Shown here in pieces: positions 428 through 19,355 of a DNA stretch of 64,000 nucleotides. The position numbers were made by a program, and so were the translations under genes. The stretch covers positions 416,001 to 480,000 of the forward strand of contig CAVPNL010000001.1 of NCBI GenBank assembly GCA_963706575.1, written 5' to 3'. Source of the DNA: an uncultured delta proteobacterium. GTDB taxonomy: Bacteria > Desulfobacterota > Desulfobacteria > Desulfobacterales > JAHEIW01. The notes under the pieces were generated by a model. That model was not told where the DNA came from, did not search any database, and saw nothing but the letters and a program-made list of their open reading frames with translations. Position 1 is the stretch's first letter, and each line of letters starts with the position of its first letter.

Positions 428-456
428 ATACCGGGGGCTTTTTTAGCCCCCGGTAT
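428..456 (+). terminator. Stem-loop after trpB2
   Basis: ATACCGGGGGCT-TTTTT-AGCCCCCGGTAT, perfect 12-bp stem; weak U-tract. Confidence 0.6.
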
Positions 457-478
457 TCGGTAATGAATAAGGTACGAG

Positions 479-760
479 ATGAGCAAGCCATCAAAACCGC
501 CGGATGACGATTTTGAGATTCGGTGCCCCAAGCTCGGGCACCAAATTTATTTTTCCTATTGCGCCAAAGAGAACCAGGGGGTTCCCTGTTACCGGACCCT
601 TGATTGCTGGTTTGGGCATTTTGAGGTTGAAGCATTCCTTAAAAAAACGCTGACACCTGCCGAATGGAAAGCGGCGTTCACCAATCCTCCCAAACCCAAG
701 ATTGCCTCATTGCTTGAAATGATCGAACAGGCAAAAAATAGGCAGACGAAAGAATCTTAA
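479..760 (+). CDS. Small Cys-rich hypothetical protein
   Basis: 93-aa ORF with RCPKLGH...YC...PCYRTLDCW; possible metal-binding site. Confidence 0.7.
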   Translation: MSKPSKPPDDDFEIRCPKLGHQIYFSYCAKENQGVPCYRTLDCWFGHFEVEAFLKKTLTPAEWKAAFTNPPKPKIASLLEMIEQAKNRQTKES

Positions 761-810
761 AGGGAAAGGGAATCTGCGGTGCCCATCAAACCTACCGCAA
801 CATTCAATCG

Positions 811-1518
811 ATGTATTTTTGCCATTCACCAGAAATAAAAAAACAATTTCCCCGGATTGTATCGGGCGCCATGTTTATTGATACGATTCACCCGGGTGTT
901 GATGCCGAACCTTATCTTAAACCCTGGTACCAGAATGCCCGCAGCCGTCTAGAGACACAAACCGAATCGCAGATGCCTGAGATCAGTGCCTGGCGCAAGG
1001 CATACAGCCAGATGGGCTTAAAGCCCACCAAATATCGTTCTGCGGCCGAAGCACTGTTAAGACGGTTTCGGCGTGAAGACGATTTGCCCCGCCTGCACCC
1101 CCTGGTGGATTACTGCAATGCGCTTTCCCTGGCCTTTGCGATTCCGGTAGCGGCTTTTGATCTGGACCGGGTCGCAGAATACATCGAAGTCCGACACGCC
1201 AAAGGAACAGAGCAGCATCTGGCGTTTGGTGGTAAAATGGAACACCCATCACCGGACGAAGTCATTTTATGCGATGCTCTGGATCATGCGCACGGCAGGC
1301 GCTGGACATTTCGACAAAGCTGGCAGTCCATCGTCACACCCGAAACAAAAAAAGTGTTGGTTCTCAGCGAAGCCATGCATGAATCCGCCGATGTCGATGT
1401 GCCCGTGTTGATGGACCAACTGGCTGAAGGTATTAGCGCCCTGTGGTCGCCCCCCAAACAGCGTGGCATGATCACCGCTGCATCCGACCGGCTCGAAGTT
1501 TTAGCAACGCCATCCTAA
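811..1518 (+). CDS. Stand-alone B3/4 (PheRS beta editing domain-like) protein
   Basis: WRKAYSQMGLKPTKYRSAAEALLRR, PLVDYCNALSL and AFDLD motifs of the B3/4 family. Confidence 0.85.
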   Translation: MYFCHSPEIKKQFPRIVSGAMFIDTIHPGVDAEPYLKPWYQNARSRLETQTESQMPEISAWRKAYSQMGLKPTKYRSAAEALLRRFRREDDLPRLHPLVDYCNALSLAFAIPVAAFDLDRVAEYIEVRHAKGTEQHLAFGGKMEHPSPDEVILCDALDHAHGRRWTFRQSWQSIVTPETKKVLVLSEAMHESADVDVPVLMDQLAEGISALWSPPKQRGMITAASDRLEVLATPS

Positions 1519-1578
1519 GCCTTATTTTTGATTTTCATCCAAATCGAAAAAATGCTGCTGTAAATCGTCGCAGTGCAG

Positions 1579-1604
1579 AAAAAATCGATACCGATCGATT
1601 TTTT
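1579..1604. terminator. Bidirectional terminator-like hairpin between convergent genes
   Basis: AAAAAATCGAT-ACCG-ATCGATTTTTT; a second hairpin CGGGGGAC..GTCCCCCG lies at 1654-1680. Confidence 0.55.
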
Positions 1605-1692
1605 TGAATAGGCGGATTGTTTCAGAAGGGCCAATGAAAACATGAAAATGATGCGGGGGACAGCATGAAACCGTCCCCCGTCAAATGGATCG

Positions 1693-2280
1693 TTATTGTA
1701 CCGCGGCAAATCCGAGATCAAAGGCCTTTAGATTCGACTCCAGGAAGGCCTTTTTGGTTGAAGTCGAAATGGTCTCTTTCATATCTGCTGCACTGATGGG
1801 AATCGTTTCTGAGCCGATCAGCGCTCCCAGCATGACCATGTTCAAGGACAACGGATTGCCGGCTTTTTCAGCCAGGGCGGATCCGTCAAAAGCGATGACC
1901 TTATCGATTTTGGATTTGATCAATGACATAATTTCTTCCAAAGGTGGATAAACACCCTGTCCCAGAGCCGCGGTGAACGGTTGCATCGATCTTGTGTTGG
2001 TGATCACAACGGTTTTGCGGTTGCATTTACTCAGACCCCGCAGGGTTTCAAGGGGTTCGAAACTCAGGAATACATCGCTTTCGCCGGGAGAAATTATGGG
2101 GCTGCTGATGTCGCCCAATAAAACAGCTGATTCCACAATTCCTCCGCGTTGCGCCATGCCGTGTATCTCACTGGCAACCACGGGCATGCCCAGCGTAAGG
2201 GCGGCCTCGCCCAGAAGATTTGTGGCCAAAAGATTTCCCTGGCCGCCGACACCGATAACGACTATTTTTTTAGGTTCCAT
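1693..2280 (-). CDS. iorB: Indolepyruvate/arylpyruvate:ferredoxin oxidoreductase beta subunit (copy 1)
   Basis: GVGGQG, SEIHGMAQRGG, NMVMLGAL; follows iorA. Confidence 0.9.
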   Translation of the reverse strand: MEPKKIVVIGVGGQGNLLATNLLGEAALTLGMPVVASEIHGMAQRGGIVESAVLLGDISSPIISPGESDVFLSFEPLETLRGLSKCNRKTVVITNTRSMQPFTAALGQGVYPPLEEIMSLIKSKIDKVIAFDGSALAEKAGNPLSLNMVMLGALIGSETIPISAADMKETISTSTKKAFLESNLKAFDLGFAAVQ

Positions 2281-2295
2281 AAAAGCCTCCCGCTA

Positions 2296-4152
2296 TTATT
2301 CTTTTATTGGCAAAATTGCATTTTCAGGACAGATTTGCGCGCATACCGTGCACCCGGTGCAAAGATGTTTATGGATTCCCACTTTTTCATCTTCCACATA
2401 CATGGCCGGGCAGGCCAGTTTGTTTAAGCAAATCTTGTGGTTCTGGCATTTCTCCTGATTGATATAAAAGGGCTTTGAGCGTTTCAGCTGGCTCGTGGCC
2501 CTGGCAAACAGGGGACACATCTCCTCAGAAATGATGACCGATATGCCGTCATATTCAGCCGACGCTTTAATTTTTTCTATGGCACTTTTAACCCTGAAAG
2601 GCCGGATCAGATGCACATCTTCAACGCCACACCCTCTGACGATCTGCTCGATGGAAACGCGTGTGCGCGGGACGCCCAGGCCCAGGGGCTCGGTGTCCAC
2701 GCCGGGGTGGATCTGGTATCCGGTCATCGCCGTCGTACCGTTGTCCAGGATGACCAGAGTGAATTTGTGATTGTTGTGGACGCCATTGATCAGGCCGGTG
2801 ATGCCGGAATGAAAAAAAGTGGAATCGCCGATGAAACCGACCACTTTTTGATCGGTGGCCTGGGAAAAGCCGCAGGAAGAAGTCGCTGAAGATCCCATGC
2901 AAATAATGAAATCGGCCATGTTAAAAGGCGGCATAATCCCTAAAGTATAACATCCGATATCGGTGGGATAGACTGTATCCGATCCATAGACCTCTTTGAC
3001 CGCGTAATAAGTGGCCCGGTGGGGGCAGCCCGCACACAGGTTCGGAGGGCGCCCGGGCAAAGCCGGCACATCAGAGAGTTCCGGAATTTCAGGCAGGCTG
3101 CAATCCACACCGAAATATTCGGCAATGGCCTGTCGAACCATACCCGGATTATATTCTAGGAGGCGCGATAAAGAACCCACCCCTTTGCCGTTTATTGCAA
3201 TGGTCATATCGTTTCGGTGGGCCAATGCCTGCAGTTCTCTTTCGTTCAGGGGCTCAAGCTCTTCGACGACGAGTACTTTTTCTACCTGGTTCATAAACTC
3301 CAGACACAGCTTCTCGGGTAACGGCCAGGAGAATCCCAGCTTTAAAATACTTACCTGATCGGAAATGCCCAGATCCGATACGGCATCCATCACATAATTG
3401 AAGCTCACGCCGTTGGCAACAATTCCCCATTTCCCCTTGCCGATGATTTCGTTGTACGTCCAGGTTTCGGCGATTTCCTGTGCCTGTTGATATTTTTGCA
3501 AAAGGTGCTGATGAAGCACCCGGGAGTGAGCCGGCATGGTGACCCACTGGGCAGGGTTCTTTTCGAATCGGCCCTTTGTTTTGAACGGCTTTAATTCACC
3601 TAGCTCGACTTTGCCCCGAATGTGGTTCAGGCGTGTGGTGGTTCGTAAAAGCACCGGTAGCTTGAGCGTTTCGGATAGGTCGAAGGCCAGGGTGGCGACA
3701 TCTTTCATTTCTTGCGCATTGGTGGGTTCCAATAAAGGAATACCGGCGAGACGGGCATACTGCCGGTTGTCCTGTTCATTTTGACTCGAGAAAAGATAAG
3801 GGTCGTCAGCGTTAACGATGACCATGCCCCCCTCTACGCCCACATATGCCAGGGACATCAAGGGGTCGGCGGCCACATTGAGCCCGACCTGTTTCATGGT
3901 GACCATCGTTCTGAGACCACTGGCAGCCGCAGCTGAACCCACTTCCATCGCGACTTTCTCATTGGTTGAGTACTCGAAGTAAAGGTCCGTCTCCTGACTG
4001 ATGTCAAAAAATTGGGCGGGGATTTCAGACGAGGGGGTTCCCGGGTAGCAGGTGGCAAACGACATTCCGGCCTCAAGGGCTCCCCGGGCAATGGCTTCAT
4101 TGCCCAGAAGGAACATGGCTTTACCCGGCGAATCGGTTAATAGCTTGTGCAT
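2296..4152 (-). CDS. iorA: Indolepyruvate/arylpyruvate:ferredoxin oxidoreductase alpha subunit (copy 1)
   Basis: LGNEAIARG, YPGTPSSE, CAGCPH, DIGCY, TPP motif GDSTFFHSG...DN, C-terminal ferredoxin Cys motifs; start moved to ATG 4152 behind GGAGGT. Confidence 0.92.
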   Translation of the reverse strand: MHKLLTDSPGKAMFLLGNEAIARGALEAGMSFATCYPGTPSSEIPAQFFDISQETDLYFEYSTNEKVAMEVGSAAAASGLRTMVTMKQVGLNVAADPLMSLAYVGVEGGMVIVNADDPYLFSSQNEQDNRQYARLAGIPLLEPTNAQEMKDVATLAFDLSETLKLPVLLRTTTRLNHIRGKVELGELKPFKTKGRFEKNPAQWVTMPAHSRVLHQHLLQKYQQAQEIAETWTYNEIIGKGKWGIVANGVSFNYVMDAVSDLGISDQVSILKLGFSWPLPEKLCLEFMNQVEKVLVVEELEPLNERELQALAHRNDMTIAINGKGVGSLSRLLEYNPGMVRQAIAEYFGVDCSLPEIPELSDVPALPGRPPNLCAGCPHRATYYAVKEVYGSDTVYPTDIGCYTLGIMPPFNMADFIICMGSSATSSCGFSQATDQKVVGFIGDSTFFHSGITGLINGVHNNHKFTLVILDNGTTAMTGYQIHPGVDTEPLGLGVPRTRVSIEQIVRGCGVEDVHLIRPFRVKSAIEKIKASAEYDGISVIISEEMCPLFARATSQLKRSKPFYINQEKCQNHKICLNKLACPAMYVEDEKVGIHKHLCTGCTVCAQICPENAILPIKE

Positions 4153-4240
4153 GATTACCTCCAATGGTTTCAAATTCAGAATTTATTATTTTTCAAAATT
4201 TTTTGGATTTAATTGTCGTCAGAAACCGAATTCTAAAAAT

Positions 4241-4960
4241 TTATTTATGGGGCAGATAAGGATCTCGATTTTTCATAAAGTCTTTGTAAATTTTATAATG
4301 TTCTGTTTCTTCGTAGCGAATCCGTTTAACGGGCATTTGGTCAAAACTATAGATATCCGCACCGGGACACGCCAATAAAATCGGAGAATGGGTCGCAATA
4401 ATAAATTGGGCATGACCGGCTATGCTCATATCACATAATATGGTCAACAGCTCCAACTGACTTTTCGGAGACAGCGCGGTTTCGGGTTCGTCAAGAAAAT
4501 AGAGGCCCTTGATTTTATAGCGACCCCTGAAAAGCGACATCAGCGATTGACCGTGGGACTGGGTGATTAAAGATTCTCCGCCAAAATATTTAAATATTTC
4601 CGGATTTACGGTGGCGCCTTCATCCAGGTATTTGGCAAAATCCTTGAACGTCGCAGAGGAGAAAAATGATCCCGGCACGCTGCCATCCGTCCACTTTACC
4701 GCCATAAAAAGGTACAGGACTTTTTCATAGGGATTGGGCTTATAACGGGTGCCGCCAAGACCTTGCCAAATTGGAATGTTGCACTTTTTACATATGGCGG
4801 TGAGCAGCGTAGATTTTCCGGTTCCATTTTCGCCTACGAAAAAGGTCACCGGTTTACGAAAGGCGATGCTGGCGGTGGTTTGAAAAATAGCCTGATTGAA
4901 CGGGTAGTGGTCTTTGGTTGGATATTTTTCTGGAAAAAGGGTGATCTCCTCGAGATGCAT
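4241..4960 (-). CDS. Predicted ABC/AAA-type ATPase (COG3910-like)
   Basis: Walker A GENGTGKST, SHGQ signature, LDEPE Walker B, ATHSP. Confidence 0.85.
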   Translation of the reverse strand: MHLEEITLFPEKYPTKDHYPFNQAIFQTTASIAFRKPVTFFVGENGTGKSTLLTAICKKCNIPIWQGLGGTRYKPNPYEKVLYLFMAVKWTDGSVPGSFFSSATFKDFAKYLDEGATVNPEIFKYFGGESLITQSHGQSLMSLFRGRYKIKGLYFLDEPETALSPKSQLELLTILCDMSIAGHAQFIIATHSPILLACPGADIYSFDQMPVKRIRYEETEHYKIYKDFMKNRDPYLPHK

Positions 4961-4990
4961 TGAATCGTCTCTCCAATCGGATACTGAATT

Positions 4991-5006
4991 AATTAATTTT
5001 TGAATT
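4991..5006. promoter_or_regulatory. Candidate GntR operator (AATTAATTTTTGAATT) upstream of ATPase-iorAB
   Basis: Matches motif copies at 7846, 8026, 16476, 19430 and 19650; minus-strand TTGAC at about 5042-5046. Confidence 0.45.
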
Positions 5007-5379
5007 ATTTTTTATGGGTTATATGGATAAGATGGCTTCAGGTCAAGGAAAAATTTAATCTGGCCTGAAAATTATCATCGAGGTTTATTTAAAAACCAAC
5101 TTATAATCAAATATTTGAAATTATTATGGTAAATTTAGTTTTCGGTTTCCTGATTTTTTTTAACTTTACCCCTGTTGAATCTATGATAATATATTGACTC
5201 TTTTATCAAATTAAATTAAATAAAAAATTAAATTAAATAGAATCAGATTCGCATAGTAGACAGAATCTGCCGTCTTGTATTCAAACGGCGTTTTTGTTTA
5301 AATCAAGAGCACATTCATCTATCGAGAAAGACCAAATTAGCCCAAAATCGATCGTTGAAAATTAAGGGAGGAATAGAAG

Positions 5380-6468
5380 ATGGCAAACAGAATATTCAAT
5401 TTTTCAGCCGGGCCCTGCACGTTGCCGCTACCCGCACTCGAAAAAGCGCAGACCGAGTTCGTTGATTACCAGGGTGCTGGAATGTCCCTGACCGAAATGA
5501 GTCACCGGGGCAAACATTACGATGATGTGCACTATGCCGCCATCGCCAATATCCGTGAAGTGCTCAACGTGCCGGAAAGCCACGATGTTTTGTTTATCCA
5601 GGGCGGCGCTACATTGCAGTTTGCCATGGTCCCCTTGAACTTCATAATAGATGGCAAAAGTGCAGAATTTCTCAATACAGGAACCTGGGTCAAAAAAGCG
5701 ATTGCCGATGCCGAAAAGATAGGACCGACCCGTATTGTCTGGACCGGAGAGTCCGAAAATTTTACGCGTATCCCCGGCAAAGATGAGTATAAAGTAGGAG
5801 AAGATGCCGCTTATCTCCACATTTGCGGCAACGAGACCATCGGCGGAATCGAGTACCATGTGTATCCGGATACGTCAGCGGTGCCGCTGGTTGCGGATAT
5901 GTCTTCTCATATCATGTCGCGACCGATCGACTGGAGCAAACTCGACCTGGCGTTTGCCGGTGCTCAGAAAAATCTGGGTCCTGCCGGCCTGGCACTGGTT
6001 ATCATCAATAAAGCTCTTTTGGACAAGTGTAAAGACGGCCTGCCGGCCTATCTGTCCTATAAAACCCATGCCGCTAAAGATTCGCTGTATAACACGCCTC
6101 CGGTGTTTGCCATTTATATGATGAAGCTAACCATTGACTGGGTAAAATCCGAGGGCGGACTGGCTGAAATGGAAAAAAGGGCGCTGGCGCGTTCCGGCGC
6201 GCTTTACGACACCATCGACAGCTCTGGGGGATGGTATCGCTGCCCGGTGGACAAAGCCTCTCGCTCCCGCATGAATGTTTGTTTCCGTCTGCCGACAGAA
6301 GAGCTGGAGACAAAGTTCATTGCTGAAGCGCTAACAGCCAATTTTTCCGGCCTTAAGGGTCACCGTTCAGTTGGCGGTTGCCGGGCATCTATGTACAATG
6401 CCATGCCGCTGGAAGGTGCCGAAAAACTGGCGGAATTTATGGCGGACTTTAAAAAGAAAAACGCTTGA
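5380..6468 (+). CDS. serC: Phosphoserine aminotransferase
   Basis: FNFSAGP, EMSHR, GGATLQF, AQKNLGPAG (PLP Lys), GHRSVGG.RASMYNA; RBS GGGAGG. Confidence 0.96.
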   Translation: MANRIFNFSAGPCTLPLPALEKAQTEFVDYQGAGMSLTEMSHRGKHYDDVHYAAIANIREVLNVPESHDVLFIQGGATLQFAMVPLNFIIDGKSAEFLNTGTWVKKAIADAEKIGPTRIVWTGESENFTRIPGKDEYKVGEDAAYLHICGNETIGGIEYHVYPDTSAVPLVADMSSHIMSRPIDWSKLDLAFAGAQKNLGPAGLALVIINKALLDKCKDGLPAYLSYKTHAAKDSLYNTPPVFAIYMMKLTIDWVKSEGGLAEMEKRALARSGALYDTIDSSGGWYRCPVDKASRSRMNVCFRLPTEELETKFIAEALTANFSGLKGHRSVGGCRASMYNAMPLEGAEKLAEFMADFKKKNA

Positions 6469-7845: not shown

Positions 7846-7861
7846 AATTAAATATTGAATT
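7846..7861. promoter_or_regulatory. Candidate GntR operator (AATTAAATATTGAATT) upstream of MFS
   Basis: Consensus copy of the recurrent 16-bp motif. Confidence 0.5.
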
Positions 7862-8017
7862 CTTTTTACGATGATCATCGAATTTAAACTTTGTCAAATA
7901 ATGATCACCTCCTATCGAAAAATTCGCGTAAATTGATTGAATTATAAAGTAATATCTATCTAACGCCATGCGGTTAATTTCACTGTCGGATCCTGCATTG
8001 AATAAAGGACTTTTCTC

Positions 8018-8053
8018 TTGACAGGGATTAATTATTGAATTAAAAGTGAAATT
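8018..8053 (+). promoter_or_regulatory. Sigma70-like promoter with overlapping candidate operators upstream of the GntR gene
   Basis: TTGACA at 8018 followed by GATTAATTATTGAATT and AATTAAAAGTGAAATT; near-identical layout at 19630-19665. Confidence 0.55.
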
Positions 8054-8077: not shown

Positions 8078-8758
8078 ATGACGATGAAAAATGAGAAAGA
8101 AAACAAGACTCTTATAGAGGACGCATACCGTAAAATCAAGCAGATGATCTTTCAGCAAAAGGTCATCCCTGGACAGCGACTGGTTTACAGTGATTTGTGC
8201 AAGCTTTTTGACATGTCCAGAACCCCGATTATTAATGCACTTACTCGACTCGAACAGGAAGGCTTTCTTGTTTCCGAGGCCTTCCGCGGTTTTCAGGTAA
8301 AACCCATCGACCTTCAGGAACTCTGGGACCTTTTCGAAGTGCGCGAAGCACTTGAGTCGTATGCCGTCGAAAAAGCCATCGAAAGAGCCGAGCCTTTAGA
8401 TTTTGAAATACTTGAGGAAAAACTTCGCAATCATCAGCAATACATGCCGGACAGCTACACCCCCAAAAAATTCATGGTGGATGCTGAATTTCATGTTCAG
8501 ATCGCGGCGATGACCAAAAATAAAGTTCTGGAGAAAATGCTGAAGACAAATTTGGAGCACGTCAATCTTCGCTTCCGTTTGGACAGTTGCGATTCTTCAA
8601 GAATGCCGCTGGCGGTTGAGGAGCATCATGAGCTGGTGGAAAGGATGAAGAAGAAGGATGTGTTAAAGAGCGTTGAAATTATCCGAATGCATGTGCGCAG
8701 TGCGCGGGATACGTGTCTAAATTGTCTGTCCATGGAAGAGGAGACAATTGGTCTTTAA
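8078..8758 (+). CDS. GntR/FadR-family transcriptional regulator (wHTH + FCD)
   Basis: PGQRL...MSRTPIINALTRLEQEG helix-turn-helix; DAEFH and EEHHEL FCD motifs. Confidence 0.92.
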   Translation: MTMKNEKENKTLIEDAYRKIKQMIFQQKVIPGQRLVYSDLCKLFDMSRTPIINALTRLEQEGFLVSEAFRGFQVKPIDLQELWDLFEVREALESYAVEKAIERAEPLDFEILEEKLRNHQQYMPDSYTPKKFMVDAEFHVQIAAMTKNKVLEKMLKTNLEHVNLRFRLDSCDSSRMPLAVEEHHELVERMKKKDVLKSVEIIRMHVRSARDTCLNCLSMEEETIGL

Positions 8759-8801: not shown

Positions 8802-10480
8802 ATGGATCAAGGACAGATAAAAAAGGAAATGAAGGCGTGGGAACAAACCGCGCTTAAACGTGTATTGGACAAAAGCTGCTGAACGTGAGGCCGTCTTTAC
8901 CACCGAAAGCGGAATTCCGGTAAAGCGCCTTTACACACCATTGGATTTGCCGGATGCGGACTATAATGGCGATCTGGGTTACCCCGGAGAATATCCCTAT
9001 ACCCGCGGGGTTTATCCCACGATGTATCGCGGACGCCTCTGGACCATGCGAAACTATGCCGGATTTGGCACGGCGGAAGATACCAATAAACGCTTTCGCT
9101 ATCTTCTGGAACAGGGAATGCCGGGATTGTCCGTTGCTTTCGATCTGCCCACCCAGGTTGGATATGATTCCGACCACCCGATGTCAGAAGGCGCAGTGGG
9201 TCGCGTTGGCGTGGCGGTGGACACTCTGGCGGATATGGAGATCATTTTCAATGATATTCCGTTAGACCGGGTTTCGACTTCCATGACCATCAATTCGCCG
9301 GCCACCGTTTTGCTGGCCATGTACATCGCCGTCGGGGAGAAGCAGGGTGTCCCCAAAGAAAAGTTGATGGGCACCACCCAGAACGATATTTTAAAAGAAT
9401 TTATTGCCAGAGGAACCTATATCTTCCCGCCGGAGCCGAGCCTGAAGCTGACCATGGATGTCATTGAGTATTGTTACAAACATGTTCCCAAGTGGAATAC
9501 CCTCAGTATCACCGGATATCATTTCAGAGAGGCCGGTGCAAATGCCATCCAGGAACTGGCCTTTACCCTGGCAGATGCGATCCTCTATATCGAGAATGCG
9601 CTGGAACGCGGTCTGGATGTGGATGATTTTGCGCCCCGATTGTCTTACAGCCTGTCATGCCACCGGGATTTATTCGAGGAAGTGGCCAAATACCGGGCTG
9701 CCAGACGAATGTTCGCAAAAATTGTCAAAGAACGTTTTAATGCTCAAAACCCCAAGAGCTGCCTGTTCAGGACATACAGCGGATCGTGCGGATCAACCTT
9801 GACGCCCCAGCAACCGCAGAATAATATTGTTCGTATCGCCATGCATGCCCTGATGGGGGTTTTGGGCGGCCATCAAGCGATCCATACGGCCTGCTGGGAT
9901 GAGGGTTATGCCATTCCGACCGAAGACTCCGCTCGCCTGGCATTAAGGACCCAACAGATCCTGGCCCACGAGAGCGGTCTTTGTAACACCATTGATCCGC
10001 TGGCCGGTTCCTATTACGTGGAAGCCTTAACCGATGAAATCGAAAAACGGACCTCGGAATATTTAAACAAAATCGATGAAATGGGAGGGATGCTTAAAGC
10101 CATTGAAAACGGTTTTGTCTTCAGAGAGATTCAGGAATCCAGTGTTGAATTTCAGCGCAAGGTGGACAGCGGAGAGAAAGTCATCGTGGGACTGAACAAG
10201 TTCGTCATGCCGGAAGAAGAAGATGTTGAGCAACAGGATATATTTGAATACGATCAACGGATTGAGAAAATTCAGCAAGAAAAACTGGCACAGGTAAAAG
10301 CCAAAAGGGATGCGAAACAGGTGACTGCAGGCTTTGCAGAAGTTAGATCGCGCCATCGATCAAAACGGAAATCTGATGCCGTATATCGTCGATGCTGTCC
10401 AGTGTTACGCCAGTCTTGGCGAAATATGCGGCGTCATGCGGCAGAAATGGGGGGAGTACAGCCCGCCCATCTATCTATAA
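8802..10480 (+). CDS. B12-dependent acyl-CoA mutase, large (substrate-binding) subunit; two +1 frameshifts (about 8871-8874 and 10321-10333), sequencing error or pseudogene
   Basis: PGEYPYTRG, WTMRNYAGF, QNDILKE, GYHFREAG, DPLAGSYYVE; true N-terminus MDQGQIKKEMKAWE from 8802 and true C-terminus NLMPYIVDAV...SLGEICGVMRQKWGEY ending at TAA 10480 lie in other frames. Confidence 0.9.
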
Positions 10481-10519: not shown

Positions 10520-10924
10520 ATGCAAAAACATAAGACGCGTGTTCTGATTGCGAAAGTTGGGCTCGACAGTCATGACCGCGGCGCTAAAATAGTTGCCCGA
10601 TCCCTGCGAGATGCCGGCTTGGAGGTGATCTACACCGGAATCCGCCAAAGCGTGGACCAGGTTATCAGCGCTGTCGTACAGGAAGACGTGGATTTGCTGG
10701 GTCTTAGCTTTTTGGCCGGTGATCATTTGGTCCTGGCGCCAAAGGTAATCCAGGGGCTAAAAGAAAAAGGCCGAGCGGATATCCCGTTACTGGTGGGCGG
10801 CATTATCTTAAAGCGTCACGTTGAAGAACTGGTAAAGATGGGTGTAAAAAAAGTATTTTTACCCGGAACCCCACTGAAGGAAATCGTCAACTATATTCAG
10901 GAAAATGTGTCCCCGCCTTCCTGA
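10520..10924 (+). CDS. Cobalamin-binding small subunit of acyl-CoA mutase
   Basis: DSHDRG (DxHxxG), GLSFL, LVGGII. Confidence 0.93.
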   Translation: MQKHKTRVLIAKVGLDSHDRGAKIVARSLRDAGLEVIYTGIRQSVDQVISAVVQEDVDLLGLSFLAGDHLVLAPKVIQGLKEKGRADIPLLVGGIILKRHVEELVKMGVKKVFLPGTPLKEIVNYIQENVSPPS

Positions 10925-11011
10925 ACGAATCATGAATTCATTGGCATACAGGATTTTCTGAACTTGAAATATGAAAGATAACGGCAAGTGTGCGGAAAGG
11001 GAACGAGTTCG

Positions 11012-13309
11012 ATGACATCATTGAATTATATTGGGAAAAGGCTTCGCAAAAAGGACGGCCGTGAAAAGGTTACCGGACGTGCCATTTACGGACAGGACCT
11101 TGTCTTGCCCAGAATGCTTTATGGTAAAATTCTATACAGCCTTTACCCCCATGCAAAAATCCGCTCAATTGATACCCGCAAAGCCAGGCGGGTACCCGGT
11201 GTCAGAGTTATCCTGACCGGAGACGACATCCCCGATATTCGAATCGGGTTTATCAAGGATAATATGCCCATAAATAAAGGGATCGTGCGCTGGGCCGGTG
11301 ACGAGATAGCGGCAGTAGCAGCAGAATCTGAAGAAGCAGCCGAGGAAGCCTTAGGGTTAATTGAAGTCGACTATGAAGAGCTTCCCGCTGTTTTTACCCC
11401 CGAAGAGGCGCTGGCCGAGGGGGCCCCGATTCTCCACGAAGGGCGCAAATCAAACCGCATTGATGAGATTTGCCGCACCTACCGCAAAGGGAACATTGAA
11501 GAAGGCTTTGCCAAATCCGATATCGTGTTGGAGGAAACCTATCATCTTCAGCATATGCAGCATTGCACCATGGGCACCTATTTTTGTGCGGCGTCTTTTG
11601 ATGCTTCCGGCAGACTGACTGTCTGGTCGCCAACTCAGGTGCCGTTCATTCTCCAGCGGGATATTGCCGATGCCTTGGGCATCAGCGGTCGCGATATTCG
11701 TATTTTGCAACCGACCATCGGAGGCGCTTTTGGTAAAGCACTCGACATGTACGCTTTTGAGGTCATTACGGTGCTGCTGGCCCAAAAAGCAGGCCGGCCT
11801 GTTAAAATCGTGTTTACACGGGAAGAGGAATTTAGCATCGCCTGCAAAAGACAGGCGGCTCAGATTACATTGAAGCACGGCGTTACCAAAGACGGGAAAC
11901 TGATGGCACGCAAAGTTGATATTTTAATGAATGCCGGCGCTTATGTTTCCTGGGGGCCGCTTTCCTCCTGGACCATGGTTCAAACCTTTGGTTCATTTTA
12001 TGAAGTGCCGCATATCGACTTCCTGTGCACACCCGTTTATACCAATATGCCGATCTGCGGCTCAATGCGCGGATACGGTAATCCCCAGGCTCACTTTGCG
12101 CTTGAGTCCCAAATGGACATGCTGGCCGAAGAACTGGGAATGGATGCCGTGGAATTTCGTAAAATCAATGCCAACGAGCCTTACAAAACCACCGAACAGG
12201 GAATCGGGATTACCAGTTGCGGATACATTGAATGTTTGGATGCGGCTTCAGAAGGAATCGGATGGAAGGAAAAACGGGGAAAGCAAACATCACCGGCGCC
12301 CAATAAAGTGCGGGGCATTGGTCTGGCCGGGATGTGGCATGTCGGTGGCGGATCTCGCATCTATCGATCCGATGGCTGCGGGGCCATTGTTAAAATTGAT
12401 GATTTTGGCAATGTCTTTCTCCTGACAGGGGCTTCCGAGATTGGGCAGGGATCCGATACCTCTCTTTGCCAGATCGTGGCGGATGTCCTGGGCGTTCCCT
12501 ATGACAGCATAACTCTGGTAAACAATGATACCGACATCACACCCTGGGATGTTGGCTGTCATGCCAGCCGTACGACCTTTATCGGCGGTAAAGCCGCCTT
12601 ATTTGCCGCCCGCGATGCCCGCAATCAACTGCTGGAAGCTGCCGGGGAAGTTTTTGAAATATCTCCCGAGGATCTTGATATTTATGACGGCATCATTTTC
12701 CCAAAAGATGCACCGAGCAAGGGCATGGCTTTTGAAAAGGTGGTTCGACGCAAACACTTCCAGAGCGGCGGTGATCTCATTATTGGGAAAGGATTTTATG
12801 ATCCGCCGACAACGTTGCTGAGTCCCAAGGATTCGCACGGCAATGTATCGGCGGCCTATACCTTTGCCGGTCAGGCAGTGGAAATTGAAGTGGATACCGA
12901 AACCGGACAGGTCGCGGTCATCAATGCCTCGGTGGCCCACGATATTGGCAAAACCATTAATCCCGTCGGACTTGAGGGTCAGATTGAAGGTGGCGCTGTC
13001 ATGGGATTGGGTTACGCTCTGTTTGAAGAAAGCGAGATCGAGGAGGGCCGGGTAATCAATCCGACGTTTGCCGATTACCATCTGCCGACAAGCCTTGACG
13101 CACCGCCGCTTCAAATTAAGATGGTGGAAACCGATGATCCGGAAGGACCTTTTGGCGCCAAAGGAATTGGCGAATGTGCTTCCATCGCACTGGCACCCGC
13201 TATCGCCAATGCCATTTATGATGCGGTGGGTGTGCGCGTCTATTCATTACCCATGACGCCGCAGAAGGTTTATCAAGCGATCATGAAGAAGAAAATGAAT
13301 AAGACCTGA
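11012..13309 (+). CDS. Xanthine dehydrogenase family molybdopterin-binding subunit
   Basis: GGAFG, MRGYG, EIGQG, GQIEGG and GPFGAKGIGE (catalytic Glu retained); start set at ATG 11012. Confidence 0.92.
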   Translation: MTSLNYIGKRLRKKDGREKVTGRAIYGQDLVLPRMLYGKILYSLYPHAKIRSIDTRKARRVPGVRVILTGDDIPDIRIGFIKDNMPINKGIVRWAGDEIAAVAAESEEAAEEALGLIEVDYEELPAVFTPEEALAEGAPILHEGRKSNRIDEICRTYRKGNIEEGFAKSDIVLEETYHLQHMQHCTMGTYFCAASFDASGRLTVWSPTQVPFILQRDIADALGISGRDIRILQPTIGGAFGKALDMYAFEVITVLLAQKAGRPVKIVFTREEEFSIACKRQAAQITLKHGVTKDGKLMARKVDILMNAGAYVSWGPLSSWTMVQTFGSFYEVPHIDFLCTPVYTNMPICGSMRGYGNPQAHFALESQMDMLAEELGMDAVEFRKINANEPYKTTEQGIGITSCGYIECLDAASEGIGWKEKRGKQTSPAPNKVRGIGLAGMWHVGGGSRIYRSDGCGAIVKIDDFGNVFLLTGASEIGQGSDTSLCQIVADVLGVPYDSITLVNNDTDITPWDVGCHASRTTFIGGKAALFAARDARNQLLEAAGEVFEISPEDLDIYDGIIFPKDAPSKGMAFEKVVRRKHFQSGGDLIIGKGFYDPPTTLLSPKDSHGNVSAAYTFAGQAVEIEVDTETGQVAVINASVAHDIGKTINPVGLEGQIEGGAVMGLGYALFEESEIEEGRVINPTFADYHLPTSLDAPPLQIKMVETDDPEGPFGAKGIGECASIALAPAIANAIYDAVGVRVYSLPMTPQKVYQAIMKKKMNKT

Positions 13310-13371: not shown

Positions 13372-13851
13372 ATGATTTTTGAGGACCATTTTTTAATCGA
13401 GGCTTCGCGGCCCGCTGTATGGGCATATATATGGGATCCGGAGAAGATGAGCCGCTGCGTTCCCGGGGTGGAAGAGGTTGTTGCAGAATCCGATGACAGC
13501 TATTCGGTGCGGGTCAAAACCCGGGTGGGATTCCTGTCGGCCACTTTTAATCTGGGTGTCAAGATTATGGAAGCTGAAGAGCCGGTTCGTCTAATGTCTG
13601 TTTTCGAAGGCAAAGACAGCAAGATTGCCAGCCGGCTAAAGCAGGTCAATACCATGGAGTTGGTTGACGTATCCGCCACCCGGACAGAGATGCGCTATAA
13701 GAGCGAAGTGACGTTGATGGGCAAAATGGCAACCCTGGGTCGCACTGTGATTAAGGGCAAGGCCAAACAAATGATGAAAGAGTTCAGTCAGAAATTGAAG
13801 ACGGAAATCGAGAAAGCCGAAGCGGAAAAGGCAGCGGCCAAGGAGGAATAA
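13372..13851 (+). CDS. CoxG/SRPBCC-family protein
   Basis: VWAYIWDPEKMSRCVPG...GKMATLGR pattern inside a molybdoenzyme operon. Confidence 0.85.
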   Translation: MIFEDHFLIEASRPAVWAYIWDPEKMSRCVPGVEEVVAESDDSYSVRVKTRVGFLSATFNLGVKIMEAEEPVRLMSVFEGKDSKIASRLKQVNTMELVDVSATRTEMRYKSEVTLMGKMATLGRTVIKGKAKQMMKEFSQKLKTEIEKAEAEKAAAKEE

Positions 13852-14724
13852 ATGCAGTCCTTTGAATATTTCGAGGCCAAAAGCCTTGAAGAAGTGGTTC
13901 AGACACTGGCATCCGGTGAAGAGGTTCGCGTGCTGGCCGGCGGATGCGGTATATTGCTTTTGATGAAACAGAACCTTTATTTCCCCCAGGCGCTGGTTAA
14001 TATCAAAAAAATTCCGGGTTTAAAAACCATTGAGCAAGACAACGGGACCATGCATATCGGCACCCTGGCCACCCATAATGAGGTTAGGGGCACGCCCTTG
14101 GTGGAGGAAAAGCTGCCGCTGCTTTCAGAAGCCCTGAGCTATGTGGCCACAAATCGCATTCGCAACATGGCTACTCTGGGCGGCACCCTGGCACATGCGG
14201 ACCCAACTTCCGATGCGGCGCCGGCCCTGCTGGCCCTTGAAGCGAAGGTGGTGGTGATGGGCAGCCAGGGTGAGCGGGTAATTGAACTGGCCGCCTTCTT
14301 TAAAGATTATTTTGAAACCGTACTGGAGCCCAGCGAGGTGCTTAAGGAAATCATTGTGCCGCTGCCGCCCGTGAAGGCCAGAGGTTTTTATACCCGCTTT
14401 CAGGTACGCAAGGCCATGGACAAAGCCATGCCGGGAGTAGCGGTTCTTATTGATTTGGAAGAAGATAAAAAGACGATTCGTTCAGCCCGGATTGGTCTAA
14501 GTGGAGTGGGCAACTGCTGTTTGCGACTTGAAGAGGCTGAACAATTTCTAGCGGGCAAGGAAGATCATGCGGATATTCGTCAAAAGATCGGGGACATCAT
14601 CAAGGCAACAATTGATCCGGTGGAAGAGTATCATTTTACGGTGGATTACAAAAAGCAGATAGCGGCCGTGTTTTTACAACGGGTGTTTGCAGAGGCCTAT
14701 TCAAGAGCTTCAAGTTCAAGCTAG
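13852..14724 (+). CDS. Xanthine dehydrogenase family FAD subunit (CoxM-like, no [4Fe-4S] insert)
   Basis: VLAGG, IRNMATLGG, ADPTSD. Confidence 0.9.
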   Translation: MQSFEYFEAKSLEEVVQTLASGEEVRVLAGGCGILLLMKQNLYFPQALVNIKKIPGLKTIEQDNGTMHIGTLATHNEVRGTPLVEEKLPLLSEALSYVATNRIRNMATLGGTLAHADPTSDAAPALLALEAKVVVMGSQGERVIELAAFFKDYFETVLEPSEVLKEIIVPLPPVKARGFYTRFQVRKAMDKAMPGVAVLIDLEEDKKTIRSARIGLSGVGNCCLRLEEAEQFLAGKEDHADIRQKIGDIIKATIDPVEEYHFTVDYKKQIAAVFLQRVFAEAYSRASSSS

Positions 14725-14739
14725 CAAAGGGGAGCAGAT

Positions 14740-15216
14740 ATGGATCAGCGATATGTGGAGTTATCTATCAATGGTGACCAATACCGGATATCGGTACAGC
14801 CCAATGAATTTTTAGCCGATGTATTGCGCAACAAACTGGATTTAACCGGAACAAAAACAGCTTGCGATATGGGCGTGTGCGGTTCCTGCACGGTGTTGTT
14901 GGACGGGTTGCCGGTCAGTTCGTGTTTGACGCTGGTGGTGGATGCTGAAGGAAAAGAAATTACGACAATAGAGGGACTGGAAAGCGCCGACGGTGAACTG
15001 CATCCGGTCCAGGAGTCATTTTTAGACAAAGGGGCGGTGCAGTGCGGATTTTGCACTGCCGGCATGGTGATGACCACCAAGGGATTCTTAGACAAAAATC
15101 CCAATCCCACAGAACAGGAGATCCGCCAGGCGCTATCGGGAAATATCTGCCGCTGCACCGGTTATGCCAAAATTGTGGAGGCGGTTGAGGATGCCGCCAA
15201 AAAAATGCAGCGTTGA
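14740..15216 (+). CDS. 2x[2Fe-2S] subunit (CoxS-like)
   Basis: CDMGVCGSC...C, QCGFC, CRC. Confidence 0.95.
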   Translation: MDQRYVELSINGDQYRISVQPNEFLADVLRNKLDLTGTKTACDMGVCGSCTVLLDGLPVSSCLTLVVDAEGKEITTIEGLESADGELHPVQESFLDKGAVQCGFCTAGMVMTTKGFLDKNPNPTEQEIRQALSGNICRCTGYAKIVEAVEDAAKKMQR

Positions 15217-15243: not shown

Positions 15244-16431
15244 CTAAATGATTTTGCGCTCCTTAAACTGCTTCAATTCTTCATCTGAATATCCCAGAAT
15301 CCCACCAATGATTTCTTTGTTGTGCTCACCGAATCGTGGCGGAAATGAAAGCTGGCGGCCCAATCCTTCAAGGTAGGGTGTCAGATTGGGGGCCGGGGGC
15401 ATCGTGATTTTTGTACCGGTTAGCGGGTCTTCAGCGGATAAAAGGCGTTGTTGCACCAGTGGATCTGCCAGCACCTCGGGAATTGAATTTATTTTGCTTA
15501 CTGGGACTGTAATGGCATTAAACAGCTCGATCAGTTCCGCTGATGAATGATTTTTTGTAATCTCATTAATGGCGTTGTTCATCTTTGGGACGTTTTCGAT
15601 TCGACCCGCGTTGGTTTGATACTCGGATTTATCAAGTGATTGAAAAATCTCCTGCGACACCATTGCTTTCCACTGGCGGTCATTACCTACAGCCAGATAG
15701 ATATAGCCGTCGTTTGTTTTATAAACCGATAGGGGAGCAAAAAATTCATGCGTATTGCCCCGGCGGGTGATCGTTCGCCCCAGACTGGTAAAGGTAATGG
15801 GAATGGTAATCCAGGATAGGGAAGATTCGTACATGGACATATTCATACAGGATCCCTCACCGGTAACCTCGCGCTTATAAAGCGCTTTCATTACCAGTCC
15901 GTAACAGTGTTCACTTGTGCCCATGTCGGGAAGCGGAATGCCGGTTACATAGGGTTCACCTTCCTTCTCACCGGTCAGGTCCATCAGACCCGATCTGGCC
16001 TGCAAGATCGGATCATAGGCCGGCTCATTGCTTTGCGGTCCGAAGCCCGTAATGCCCAGCCAAATGATATCTGGCTTTAGCGCCTTTATGGTTTCATAAT
16101 CGATCCCCAGTTTTTCGTAGTTGCGCGGAAGCTGGTTGGTGGCAAAAATGTCGACTTTTAATTCCTGAATTAGATTACGGAAAATTTTTTGGCCCTCGGG
16201 GTCCGCAAGATTGAGCGTCATGGCTTTTTTGCCGGAATTGATACAGAGGTAATAGGTATTCATCCGCTCTTCATTTAACAGGTTCCATCCAACCAGTCTG
16301 TTCGGGTCTCCATACACGGGGTGTTCCAGCCGGATCACGTTAATTCCGTCATGAGCCAATCGATATGTCAAATACGGCAGGACCGTTGCCTGTTCCAGGG
16401 ACAGAACAGTAAGGTTTTTAAAAAATTCCAT
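15244..16431 (-). CDS. Class III CoA-transferase (CaiB/BaiF family)
   Basis: GDPNR, NSGKK, ITGFG, YDPILQARSG, PLPDMG (catalytic Asp), PRFGEHN. Confidence 0.9.
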   Translation of the reverse strand: MEFFKNLTVLSLEQATVLPYLTYRLAHDGINVIRLEHPVYGDPNRLVGWNLLNEERMNTYYLCINSGKKAMTLNLADPEGQKIFRNLIQELKVDIFATNQLPRNYEKLGIDYETIKALKPDIIWLGITGFGPQSNEPAYDPILQARSGLMDLTGEKEGEPYVTGIPLPDMGTSEHCYGLVMKALYKREVTGEGSCMNMSMYESSLSWITIPITFTSLGRTITRRGNTHEFFAPLSVYKTNDGYIYLAVGNDRQWKAMVSQEIFQSLDKSEYQTNAGRIENVPKMNNAINEITKNHSSAELIELFNAITVPVSKINSIPEVLADPLVQQRLLSAEDPLTGTKITMPPAPNLTPYLEGLGRQLSFPPRFGEHNKEIIGGILGYSDEELKQFKERKII

Positions 16432-16606: not shown

Positions 16607-17008
16607 ATGATTAAGAAAATAAGTCACATTGGTCTGGCCGTTGACAATCTAGCGGAAGCCAGAGCCTTTTTCGATGAAACGTTCGATTTTTCCGTGTCCG
16701 CTCAAGAGCAATTCGGAGAGCTGCTATTTTCTTTTATTTCTCTTGGCGAAACCGATTTGGAACTCCTCCAGTCCACCACTCCTGAAGGACAGATCGCCAA
16801 ATTTATCAACAAAAGAGGGCAGGGTATCCATCATATCTCATTGGAAGTCGATGATATCCAGGCTGAATTGGACCGTCTCAAAACCAAAGGACTGCAACTT
16901 ATTAATGAGAAACCTTACCGCAACGCCCATCAGGAGTTGGTTGCCTTTATTCACCCGAAAAGCACTTATGGGATTTTATTCGAGCTCATCCAGTCTAAAG
17001 AGAAATAG
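16607..17008 (+). CDS. mce: Methylmalonyl-CoA epimerase-like VOC protein
   Basis: HIGLAV, LELLQ, GIHHISLEVDDI, FIHPKSTYGILFEL; start ATG 16607 behind GAGGAG. Confidence 0.82.
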   Translation: MIKKISHIGLAVDNLAEARAFFDETFDFSVSAQEQFGELLFSFISLGETDLELLQSTTPEGQIAKFINKRGQGIHHISLEVDDIQAELDRLKTKGLQLINEKPYRNAHQELVAFIHPKSTYGILFELIQSKEK

Positions 17009-17031: not shown

Positions 17032-17352
17032 TCAATCTCCGGTAAGCTCGCCATATCCCAAGGGGGTCAATATTTTAGATTCCTCGGGTCCGGTGATATC
17101 CCAAATAATCGGTGTCCATTTTTGGATTTCGGGATCGTTAAACAGCTTTTCCCGTATTTGTTGAAACTCGGTAAAATCTTTAAACGCATAAAGATCCGTC
17201 ACCTCATCATAGGCGCCAACACTTGTTTTCCAGGCCGCCACCAGCCGCTGACCATGTTTTTTCATTGCCGGAAGCAAATGTTCTTCAAAAATTTTGCACC
17301 ACTCCTGCATCTTGCCACGTTGCACTTTCACGGTTACGTGCAAATATATCAT
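17032..17352 (-). CDS. NIPSNAP-family protein
   Basis: 106 aa; LVAAW.T.VG...VTDLYAF...R...DPE...SKILTP pattern; RBS AGGAGG. Confidence 0.8.
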   Translation of the reverse strand: MIYLHVTVKVQRGKMQEWCKIFEEHLLPAMKKHGQRLVAAWKTSVGAYDEVTDLYAFKDFTEFQQIREKLFNDPEIQKWTPIIWDITGPEESKILTPLGYGELTGD

Positions 17353-17473: not shown

Positions 17474-18178
17474 TCATTTTGACAGTTTTTCCTGCAAAGT
17501 CGATATCAACTCATCCGTATCAAGCACTTTACCGAAGAAAGCCGCCCAGTTTCTCATAGTGTAGATCTGATCTTCCTCGGTAAATGTGGCGCTGGCGTCA
17601 TCGACCATGATGACCTTATACCCCAGATCCCAGGCGCTGCGGGCGGTGCTTCCCACGCAGACATCGGTAGCCGTTCCGACGACCACCACCGTGTCGATGC
17701 CGGCCATTCGCATGCGGTGATTGAGGGAAGTACCCATAAATGCACTGCGGGTTGCTTTGGGTATGACCAGTTCGCCCCGCTGAGGCTCGAGTTCTTCAAG
17801 GACCTTGAACTCAAAGTCCTCGGTGGTAAAGGCCGGGACTTCTTTGAGGCGTGCCTGTCTGAGGGGATGCAGGTCGCTTCCATCCAGCAGAGATGCGCCA
17901 AATGCGCCATAAAAGACCCGCATCTTGTTTTTCCTGAAAAAATCCAGCAGCTTGGCGCAGTTGGGAATAACAATTTTTAATCGATCCGAATAATATTGAG
18001 CGGCTTCCGGATCCGAGTCGATATAATTTTTTAGGACGCCGTAATCCGGATGGGCCACATAGTACTGCATATCAATCACCAACAGGGCCATGTTTGCGGG
18101 CTCCACCGGGAATTCGCCCACTGCCTGAGGGATTCTGTCCAGTCCCTTTTGCCAAGCTTTATTACCACTTGTTCCCAT
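17474..18178 (-). CDS. Isochorismatase-family cysteine hydrolase (amidase)
   Basis: Asp-Lys-Cys triad: VIDMQ, PKATRSAF, TDVCV. Confidence 0.9.
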   Translation of the reverse strand: MGTSGNKAWQKGLDRIPQAVGEFPVEPANMALLVIDMQYYVAHPDYGVLKNYIDSDPEAAQYYSDRLKIVIPNCAKLLDFFRKNKMRVFYGAFGASLLDGSDLHPLRQARLKEVPAFTTEDFEFKVLEELEPQRGELVIPKATRSAFMGTSLNHRMRMAGIDTVVVVGTATDVCVGSTARSAWDLGYKVIMVDDASATFTEEDQIYTMRNWAAFFGKVLDTDELISTLQEKLSK

Positions 18179-18227: not shown

Positions 18228-19355
18228 TTAGGGCTTACACCGCATCTCGAGGTAGGGCGGCGTTAATTCTTCACATCCGGTGTCGGTTACCAGTAATGTG
18301 CTGCAGCAGGTCACCAGGGCCGGTTCAACTTCGACAATTTGCAGGATAAAGGGGGTCCAGGGCTCAATCACCTGCTGGCCGCTCATGCCCATGTCCACCG
18401 GGCCGAAGGAAAGGCCCAGGTTGGCCCCGACTCGACGCCAGTAATCCTGCCCCTTTGCAGCGCGGTAAACGTTGTTGGCGGCCTTATACGTGTCTCCCGA
18501 AATCGCGCCCGGTTTGAGCGCCTCTTTGGCGGCCAGGTACATGTCGCGCACCAGTTTATGCGCATCGATGATTTCAGGATTTGGGTTTTCTCCAAGAAAA
18601 ACGGTTGCCTGAGCGCCTGCCAGGTATTGACATTCGGTGCCCCAGACTTCGACCGTGGCGATATCATTCACATTCAAACGGCGATTGACGGCGGTATCGT
18701 GCATGTAACCGCCTTTTGGGCCTGACCATATCCACATCTTGGGTACTTCAACATCGGACTGGCCGGCCCGATACATGGCATGTTGAATCTCAGCGATGAT
18801 TTCGTAGGGATAAAGACCGGCCCGTATCAATTCCAGCCCTTTTTGAAATCCGATATTGGTCATTTCAGCCGCCTTGCGGTAGTAGGCGACTTCCTGTTCA
18901 GACAGGGCGATGCGGATATTCTCGACCAGCCAGCTGGCATTTTTTAAATCTGCTTGGGGCAGGGCGTTTTTCATCTGATTGAACTGAAAAACCGTCATAA
19001 ATGCCTCTTCAACGCCGATGGTGCCCGTGGTAGCACCGCATTCTTCAACGAGTTCCGCCAGCATCGCATAGTGGTCTTCATGGTCCTTATAAAATCGGGG
19101 ATTTGGGGCCAGCTGGGTTTCAGCGGCCGAACATTCGATCACCCGGGTCATAAAACGCATTTCACCTTTCTGGGTGATGATCAGGGGCAAAAGGGGCAGG
19201 GTCCAGTTCATTGCTGCGGCCCGATATCCGGCCACCCAGTAAATATTTTGAGCCCGGGTGAGTATAATGGCATCCAGACCTTCCTGCAACATGCGCTTTT
19301 TAACCTTTTCAAGTCTTTGGCCGTATTCCTCATTCGAGAAAGGCAAAATACCCAT
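18228..19355 (-). CDS. Creatinase/M24-fold hydrolase lacking canonical metal ligands
   Basis: Creatinase-N start (FSNEEYGQRLEK...NIYWVAGY), pita-bread C domain (MHD, LLVTDTGCEELT). Confidence 0.8.
   Translation of the reverse strand: MGILPFSNEEYGQRLEKVKKRMLQEGLDAIILTRAQNIYWVAGYRAAAMNWTLPLLPLIITQKGEMRFMTRVIECSAAETQLAPNPRFYKDHEDHYAMLAELVEECGATTGTIGVEEAFMTVFQFNQMKNALPQADLKNASWLVENIRIALSEQEVAYYRKAAEMTNIGFQKGLELIRAGLYPYEIIAEIQHAMYRAGQSDVEVPKMWIWSGPKGGYMHDTAVNRRLNVNDIATVEVWGTECQYLAGAQATVFLGENPNPEIIDAHKLVRDMYLAAKEALKPGAISGDTYKAANNVYRAAKGQDYWRRVGANLGLSFGPVDMGMSGQQVIEPWTPFILQIVEVEPALVTCCSTLLVTDTGCEELTPPYLEMRCKP

Follow-up and report, generated by a model that had tools for sequence, protein, structure and literature searches.

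The window considered here, a stretch of 64,000 nucleotides from the genome of an uncultured delta proteobacterium (G000), carries on its forward strand (8802..10480) a gene that, to judge from its sequence, is the large, substrate-binding subunit of a two-subunit (split) B12 acyl-CoA mutase. The gene opens with an ATG at 8802, ends at 10480 and contains two 1-bp insertions; its score against TIGR00641, the substrate-binding TIM-barrel domain, is 716.7 bits with a cut-off of 303.8, and in relatives it is intact and encodes 558 amino acids. The small cobalamin-binding subunit follows on the same strand (10520..10924) and also exceeds its cut-off (TIGR00640, 151.8 versus 57.45), the DxHxxG motif being satisfied as DSHDRG rather than DGHDRG, a form common to 9 of the 53 motif matches in the loci. 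The modelled fold matches 4R3U and methylmalonyl-CoA mutase (MCM) in Foldseek, which confirms the family only, and the predicted activity is an AdoCbl-dependent rearrangement of an acyl-CoA. An earlier note on this DNA had described retained catalytic motifs beside altered MCM segments, and all of them are real: WTMRNYAGF (9040-9066), QND (9379-9387), ARG (9406-9414), GYH (9514-9522), LSYS (9640-9651), RTYSGSCG (9769-9792) and AIHTA (9877-9891) lie in a single reading frame and can be aligned, column by column, with the RQYAG, LSFF, RTHSQTSG and SLHTN segments of solved MCMs. The canonical SFF, HxQT and SLHTN segments are absent from the protein, which has SYS, YSGS and AIHTA in their place.

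Single extra bases near 8875-8877 and 10325-10327 break the mutase frame in this assembly. Two insertions in one gene, set among neighbouring coding regions that are free of frame-breaking gaps against the L001 locus, are what a recent true pseudogene in this strain might look like, whatever the role of the clade at large, which is a separate matter. Such decay is rather unlikely, and assembly error is the most likely explanation of the two frameshifts, because the extra bases are missing from every relative that covers the sites (L001, L015, L041 and contigs of DNA and RNA runs), because a comparison of 130 orthologues with the loci of relatives shows frameshifts in 7 of them in this assembly, the mutase being one, and because the 481-codon core differs from L001 mainly by synonymous codons (46 synonymous, 7 non-synonymous). 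That core is under purifying selection, as are the neighbour genes. In four RNA runs, contigs span 27-28 of 30 bins with an identity of mostly 90-95%; they represent relatives and may be DNA, and are therefore no evidence of expression.

The operon is headed by a GntR-family regulator gene (8078..8758, forward strand), which lies directly 5' of the mutase in many loci. Downstream of the mutase genes, the forward strand encodes a molybdenum (Mo) subunit of the xanthine dehydrogenase family (10988..13309; nearest solved protein 4-hydroxybenzoyl-CoA reductase, and 46% identical to the Mo subunit of the genome's iaa cluster), followed by a CoxG-like protein and the FAD and 2Fe-2S subunits of the Mo enzyme (13372..15216). 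An IaaL-like family III CoA transferase on the reverse strand (15244..16431) shares 70% identity with its iaa-cluster counterpart. The linked epimerase reported earlier is genuine, as the protein encoded at 16607..17008 (forward) scores above the cut-off of TIGR03081, the methylmalonyl-CoA epimerase family. Three reverse-strand genes come next: a NIPSNAP-family gene (17032..17352), an isochorismatase-family cysteine amidohydrolase gene of the RutB/N-carbamoylsarcosine amidase-like kind (17474..18178), whose product is nearest to RutB-like cysteine hydrolases, and a gene for an M24-fold hydrolase (18228..19355), a candidate ring-opening enzyme that is nearest to the ectoine hydrolase DoeA and retains the His aligned with it. 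On the forward strand again, an AMP-forming acyl-CoA ligase gene (19815..21365) precedes a LIV/HAAT-type ABC transporter with permeases, ATPases and binding protein (21485..26216), which adjoins the module in L003, L105, L106, L110, L122 and L123 as well; similarity searches with the binding protein (24075-25256) and the ligase indicated no substrate. Right after the transporter, here (26981-28333) and in L106, stands a flavin amine-oxidoreductase-family gene. Farther along the window, 53647-60257 encodes a PLP aminotransferase that resembles GSA mutase but scores below the cut-off, together with a further Mo enzyme to which an Fe-S domain is fused, and elsewhere in the genome (G000:C3:434971-437331) a trans-4-hydroxy-L-proline dehydratase scores above the NCBIfam cut-off.

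Upstream of the mutase operon lies a block made up of the 3' end of trpB2, iorAB and serC (1..6468), and on the far side of that block, outside the window, an operon in the order CaiB-carboxyltransferase-thiolase-MaoC-SDR-dehydrogenase (G000:C1:406382-414319). That carboxyltransferase, encoded 3 kb ahead of the window, shares 73-82% identity with its counterparts next to the mutase in L002, L003, L009, L114 and L116-L118, and this operon of carboxyltransferase and beta-oxidation genes is predicted to complete the downstream enzyme set. The trpB2/iorAB genes occur next to the cluster only in the window, in L001/L152 (G001) and, as iorA alone, in L123; G002 and G732 carry trpB2-iorAB on other contigs.

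An operator-like motif, TTAA(A/T)TATTGAATT, occurs in two copies in the divergent MFS/GntR-mutase promoter region (7848..8045) and in two further copies between the M24 hydrolase and ligase genes (19432..19657). A model of this AT-rich motif, seeded by these four sites beside the operons of the mutase and the hydrolases, found 21 matches in the genome, and 3 of the 17 non-seed matches fall within the 22-kb island, where about 0.07 would be expected: one before the CaiB-carboxyltransferase operon, one before trpB2 and one in the ATPase/serC interval (window 4993). The remaining non-seed matches comprise two at the promoter of a mutase paralogue of 76% identity and twelve scattered elsewhere. 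The GntR protein may bind these sites, and their distribution points to a mutase cluster and carboxyltransferase operon that are apparently co-regulated. The promoter regions before the GntR gene (7848-8045) and before trpB2 (G000:C1:414409-414600) are near-copies, and look as if they had been duplicated upon insertion of the trpB2-iorAB-serC-MFS block. The palindrome of the iaa cluster, GTATACnGTATAC, is unlike the mutase-cluster motif and is the probable operator of the iaa regulator; its sites are at window 49212 and 63377 and at G000:C1:404038, 488928, 511534 and 105570. Because the site at 49212 precedes serA and a second iorAB (38% identical to the first), serA and serC/trpB2 seem to belong to different regulons.

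Among the best 120 homologues (79-100% identity, the window's own protein included), LSYSL, R[TIV][YF][ST]GSCG, AIHT[ASG], QND and ARG are each found in 120 of 120, and these motifs are therefore products of neither chance nor decay. The change from RQYAG to RNYAG that the earlier note had put forward fared less well: RNYAG is present in 104 of the 120 and RQYAG is kept in 16, so that the change is not diagnostic and was rejected as a mark of the clade. In an IQ-TREE tree of 32 rows, from which the pocket segments had been removed, the clade (10 rows) is separated with a support of 100, the canonical MCM group with 97 and the IaaG type with 99, on separate branches whose order is unresolved; a FastTree tree of 70 rows likewise sets the clade apart (support 1.0). 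Thus the mutase falls outside the canonical MCM group in both trees, and it stays distinct from the pivalyl-type mutases when the pocket columns are left out. A first tree (131 of 150 representatives) had grouped the clade with the IaaG type as sisters, an arrangement that was discarded, being absent from the 70-row and 32-row trees. The clade is rare, yet widespread: 46 loci from named genomes belong to the Desulfobacterota, the Burkholderiales and a few other groups, 4 of 25 genomes of the family carry it (this genome counted), and in a sample of 400 further genomes of the phylum, for each of which only three candidates were scored, one has a match of more than 70% identity. A search of plasmids returned only relatives below 60% identity, and no paper on this clade was found in the literature searched, which was mostly without subscription papers.

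The substrate pocket is described here in the numbering of the P. shermanii MCM. The equivalents of Tyr89, Gln197, Arg207, Tyr243 and His244 are invariant in 34 of 34 aligned clade members, and Tyr89 and Arg207 we take to be the carboxylate clamp. Phe287, His328, Gln330 and Asn366 are presumably the pocket residues of MCM; in the clade Phe287 is replaced by Ser, Gln330 by Gly, and both Ser362 and Asn366 by Ala, and two other replacements add bulk (His328 to Tyr or Phe, Phe286 to Tyr). Phe287 and Gln330 are also lost in the IaaG type, and no basic residue has been gained in the altered segments. In an AlphaFold model of the L001 mutase (34 close sequences; mean pLDDT 66), the SYSL and RTYS segments lie on beta strands, the model being unreliable at residues 326-402, where pLDDT is below 50. 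An enlarged cavity is plausible. According to PMC2847961, contacts to the acyl group are made by few residues. Remodelling of the pocket is common in the family: Tyr and Arg are retained in 64 of the 131 representatives kept (50% representatives), and the pocket is fully canonical in 25 of these 64 and not so in 39. The proposal in the earlier note that the remodelled pocket accommodates a bulky substrate stands in part, upheld by a clade distinct from MCM, by the preserved clamp and by the epimerase, carboxyltransferase and IaaL-like partners, and weakened at the RNY change, by the two replacements that add bulk and by the frequency of such remodelling.

The nearest sequences beyond the clade are canonical split MCMs, at 55-60% identity, and the epimerase and carboxyltransferase are the usual partners of MCM, both of which would suit a divergent methylmalonyl-CoA mutase isoenzyme that handles propionyl-CoA derived from the pathway. 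This reading is very improbable, as the genome already has a canonical MCM (NF006944, 1240.9 versus a cut-off of 876), the clade as a whole has other residues at four positions that are invariant in canonical MCMs, and the IaaL-like transferase would be superfluous.

G000 encodes six mutase large subunits, among them the clade member, its 76% paralogue and the canonical MCM; the others are an IcmF, a mutase with RQLAG and GYN, and a mutase at C1:491649. The RQLAG/GYN pair, which we take to be a signature of pivalyl-CoA mutase, belongs to a split mutase (L050, G000:C9:128245-130499) with an orthologue in L089, and further mutases with unrelated non-canonical pockets occur in the same genomes (L091, L092, L096, L097, L088 and L094). 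The C1:491649 gene stands amid genes for a hydantoinase, a PaaK-like ligase, a Mo enzyme and a CoA transferase, and its orthologues lie beside a GGG-motif acyl-CoA dehydrogenase and ETF (L095, L098) or beside a GGG-motif dehydrogenase (L101). Since a GGG-motif dehydrogenase with ETF is the signature of the iaa operon (PMC8360864), the mutase is treated as the IaaG type, an assignment by synteny only; it is 44-46% identical to the clade mutase. A homologue search with this iaa-cluster mutase returned no informative names, and in 301 genomes of the order of G003 it had no match at 1e-200. The surrounding iaa-type cluster (L047, G000:C1:489019-513558), which starts about 9 kb past the end of the window, contains an IaaL-like transferase, GntR, the IaaG-type mutase, hydantoinases, a PaaK-like ligase and a Mo enzyme; no acyl-CoA dehydrogenase lies in the stretch examined, and a GGG-like dehydrogenase is found at C3:79994.

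The loci fall into sub-clade A (18, the window included), sub-clade B (40, the 76% paralogue included) and 13 that are unclassed. Sub-clade A is marked by SITGYH and RTYSGSCG. The gene most often present in its 18 loci is that of the Mo subunit (15), followed by the M24, cysteine amidase and NIPSNAP genes (14 each), those of the ligase (13), IaaL-like transferase (12) and epimerase (10), and the orthologous carboxyltransferase type (7). This co-occurrence is inflated, since 11 of the loci were retrieved by a search with the M24 protein. Among five genomes selected by their mutase, all fragmented assemblies, three contain the M24 gene, once 15 kb away on the same contig; conversely, 22 M24 loci include 11 with a mutase large subunit and 1 with a small subunit, the other ten being contigs of 1.6-11 kb. 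In L114-L119 the M24 and amidase genes lie 3' of the mutase genes on the same strand. Orthology of the Mo subunit is uneven, at 95-97% in close loci and 44-45% in L114, L116-L119 and L123, where the Mo enzyme is a different paralogue (53-54% to the iaa one), which suggests that the ring-hydroxylating step may have been exchanged there. Sub-clade B, the sister group (n=40), has its own neighbours, namely an amidohydrolase (31), a nitroreductase (32), a 175-aa protein (32), another type of carboxyltransferase (31), an epimerase (20) and aroyl-type ligases of the benzoate or dihydroxybenzoate kind (9 and 10). The genes specific to A, the hydrolases and the IaaL-like transferase among them, occur in 0 of 40 B loci, so that the neighbour sets are mutually exclusive although the pocket is nearly identical. 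In the B cassette of this genome (G000:C1:248631-256291), as in most B loci, the amidohydrolase, nitroreductase and 175-aa genes directly follow the mutase genes. The 175-aa protein (L030:6969-7496) has no Pfam match and yielded RdxA_C and ATC-hydrolase as Atlas leads; Atlas searches with this protein and with the M24 protein as queries gave generic clusters only. L028 (12249-14405) and 11 other B loci encode a molybdopterin enzyme that, among solved proteins, matches acetylene hydratase best.

The linkage of an epimerase, a carboxyltransferase and an IaaL-like CoA transferase fits a bulky substituted succinyl- or malonyl-CoA, and it is likely, if well short of certain, that this mutase turns a bulky 2-substituted succinyl-CoA into the corresponding substituted malonyl-CoA in the anaerobic breakdown of an N-heteroaryl acetic acid, the substituent most likely being a neutral (hetero)aryl group. 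On the model of the iaa pathway, a heteroarylacetate would be taken up by the ABC transporter, ligated to CoA and hydroxylated beside the ring nitrogen by the Mo enzyme, after which the DoeA/creatinase-like M24 enzyme and the cysteine amidase would hydrolyse two C-N bonds and yield a 3-substituted succinyl-CoA. The IaaL-like transferase would move the CoA to the other carboxyl, the mutase would make a radical 1,2-shift of the thioester, and the resulting substituted malonyl-CoA would be epimerised, decarboxylated by the carboxyltransferase and passed on to beta-oxidation. Mutase chemistry requires the thioester on the carbon that bears the substituent; ring-opened heteroarylacetyl-CoA would be the other regioisomer, hence the IaaL-like transferase in sub-clade A, and starting from a ring carboxylate the right isomer would arise without a shift, in keeping with the missing IaaL-like gene in sub-clade B. 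Imidazoleacetate, orotate and uracil-5-acetate were rejected by reasoning as parent compounds, because they would be broken down to aspartate or succinate, and no mutase is required for these.

Mutase, epimerase, decarboxylase and beta-oxidation also form the set downstream of fumarate addition, and the enzymes of this cluster match it. That the protein serves hydrocarbon degradation by fumarate addition, as an alkyl- or cycloalkylsuccinyl-CoA mutase, is nevertheless extremely improbable, with a glycyl-radical gene in 0 of 71 loci and with the two glycyl-radical enzymes that a motif scan found in the genome (92% complete) scoring as hydroxyproline dehydratase and CutC/PFL-like.

A closer relative of the reading preferred here would make the mutase a convergent IaaG acting on (2-aminophenyl)succinyl-CoA or a ring-substituted analogue, formed from indole-like compounds through TrpB2, SerC and IorAB and ATP-independent lactam opening, and in sub-clade B from quinoline-4-carboxylate. 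The mutase-type motif in the trpB2 and serC promoter regions, the IaaL-like nature of the transferase, a Mo subunit closest to the iaa one, and the benzoate-/dihydroxybenzoate-type ligases, nitroreductase and amidohydrolase of sub-clade B would all accord with such a substrate. We regard it as quite unlikely all the same, given that this genome and five other clade-bearing genomes (G001-G005) also have an IaaG-type mutase, that a single C-N hydrolysis would be needed where two hydrolases are conserved, and that trpB2-iorAB stand on other contigs in G002 and G732. Moreover, iaa clusters use the oxidative decarboxylase IaaF and no plain carboxyltransferase (PMC8360864).

The two hydrolases of sub-clade A, its IaaL-like shift and its want of a flavin reductase, together with the aroyl ligase, reductase and missing IaaL of sub-clade B, could also be accounted for by a monocyclic ring (pyrrole-3-acetate in A, isonicotinate in B) that is oxidised to a cyclic imide and opened twice to tricarballylyl-2-CoA or its amide, which the mutase would rearrange to 2-carboxyglutaryl-CoA, and decarboxylation would then lead to glutaryl-CoA. 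The best-scoring families for the co-regulated CaiB enzyme are dicarboxylate CoA transferases, whose cut-offs it does not reach, and a route from isonicotinate to tricarballylate reportedly exists in a Mycobacterium. The altered segments hold no new Arg or Lys for a second carboxylate, however, and the linked dehydrogenases stay below the glutaryl-CoA dehydrogenase cut-off, which leaves this scheme decidedly doubtful.

Returning to heteroaryl-substituted substrates, a bolder scheme would make one new mutase class the hub of two different anaerobic ring-opening modules, with five-membered heteroarylacetates opened by an ATP-free hydrolase pair and a CoA shift in A, six-membered heteroaryl-4-carboxylates opened in B by a reductase and amidohydrolase and without such a shift, and the co-regulated TrpB2, SerC and IorAB grafting an acetate handle onto a bare non-indole heterocycle in this genus. 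The whole of it is unlikely to hold, and is offered tentatively; if it did, the grafting would be an undescribed oxygen-free activation route. The reaction type itself has precedent in IaaGH (PMC8360864) and in MatBQ/ActD (PMC5719088). Few specificities of acyl-CoA mutases have been characterised, compared with dozens of altered pockets in sequence space, and the full, apparently co-regulated gene set of this clade makes both reaction and parent compound findable. Solving them would bring to light a new radical rearrangement and a way in which N-heterocycles are degraded anaerobically in sediments, and might supply unusual malonyl-CoA building blocks.

Among known systems, MCM (P. shermanii 1REQ, human 2XIJ and the split archaeal/firmicute type) shares the fold and catalytic motifs, with 55-60% identity between the clade mutase and the canonical split forms; it differs in the equivalents of Phe287, His328, Gln330, Ser362 and Asn366, which are replaced clade-wide, and the clade is separate and has a catabolic context. 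The 2-hydroxyisobutyryl-CoA mutase (4R3U) is the best solved match by sequence and fold and has the same two-subunit layout, but with RQIAG and MAQK against the RNYAG and IARG of the clade protein, and its carboxylate clamp therefore differs. ICM, HCM and pivalyl-CoA mutase have Phe, Ile or Leu at Tyr89 and have lost Arg207, whereas the clade protein keeps Tyr and Arg. In ethylmalonyl-CoA mutase the B12 domain is fused, and the residues at 328 and 366 are Gly and Pro; the clade protein is split, with Tyr and Ala at these positions. According to PMC5719088, ethylmalonyl-CoA mutase rearranges a 2-substituted succinyl-CoA, and MatBQ and ActD are proposed to convert hexylmalonyl-CoA to 2-pentylsuccinyl-CoA. 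The latter, compared by description only, resemble the present system in pairing a two-subunit mutase with an epimerase and in the bulky 2-substituted succinyl-CoA proposed, and differ in their biosynthetic direction and actinomycete hosts.

The closest parallel in gene context is IaaGH, the benzylmalonyl-CoA/phenylsuccinyl-CoA mutase of the anaerobic indoleacetate pathway (PMC8360864). Both are split B12 mutases with the Tyr/Arg clamp and with Phe287 and Gln330 lost (for the IaaG type as assigned by synteny), and both are clustered with GntR, a Mo hydroxylase, a CoA ligase and an IaaL-type transferase. The proteins are 44-46% identical and occupy separate branches (support 99 for the IaaG type, 100 for the clade), the reference being assigned by synteny only, and their pockets read SFNL/LFGGGG/TTALC in the IaaG type and SYSL/YSGSCG/AIHTA in the clade. 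A hydantoinase subunit is found in 0 of 58 clade loci, and an IaaF-like GGG dehydrogenase is absent from the cluster, its sole match in a motif scan of the genome being on another contig. In place of the hydantoinase the clade cluster has the creatinase-like M24 hydrolase and the cysteine amidase; it also has an epimerase and a carboxyltransferase, and its operator motif is a different one.
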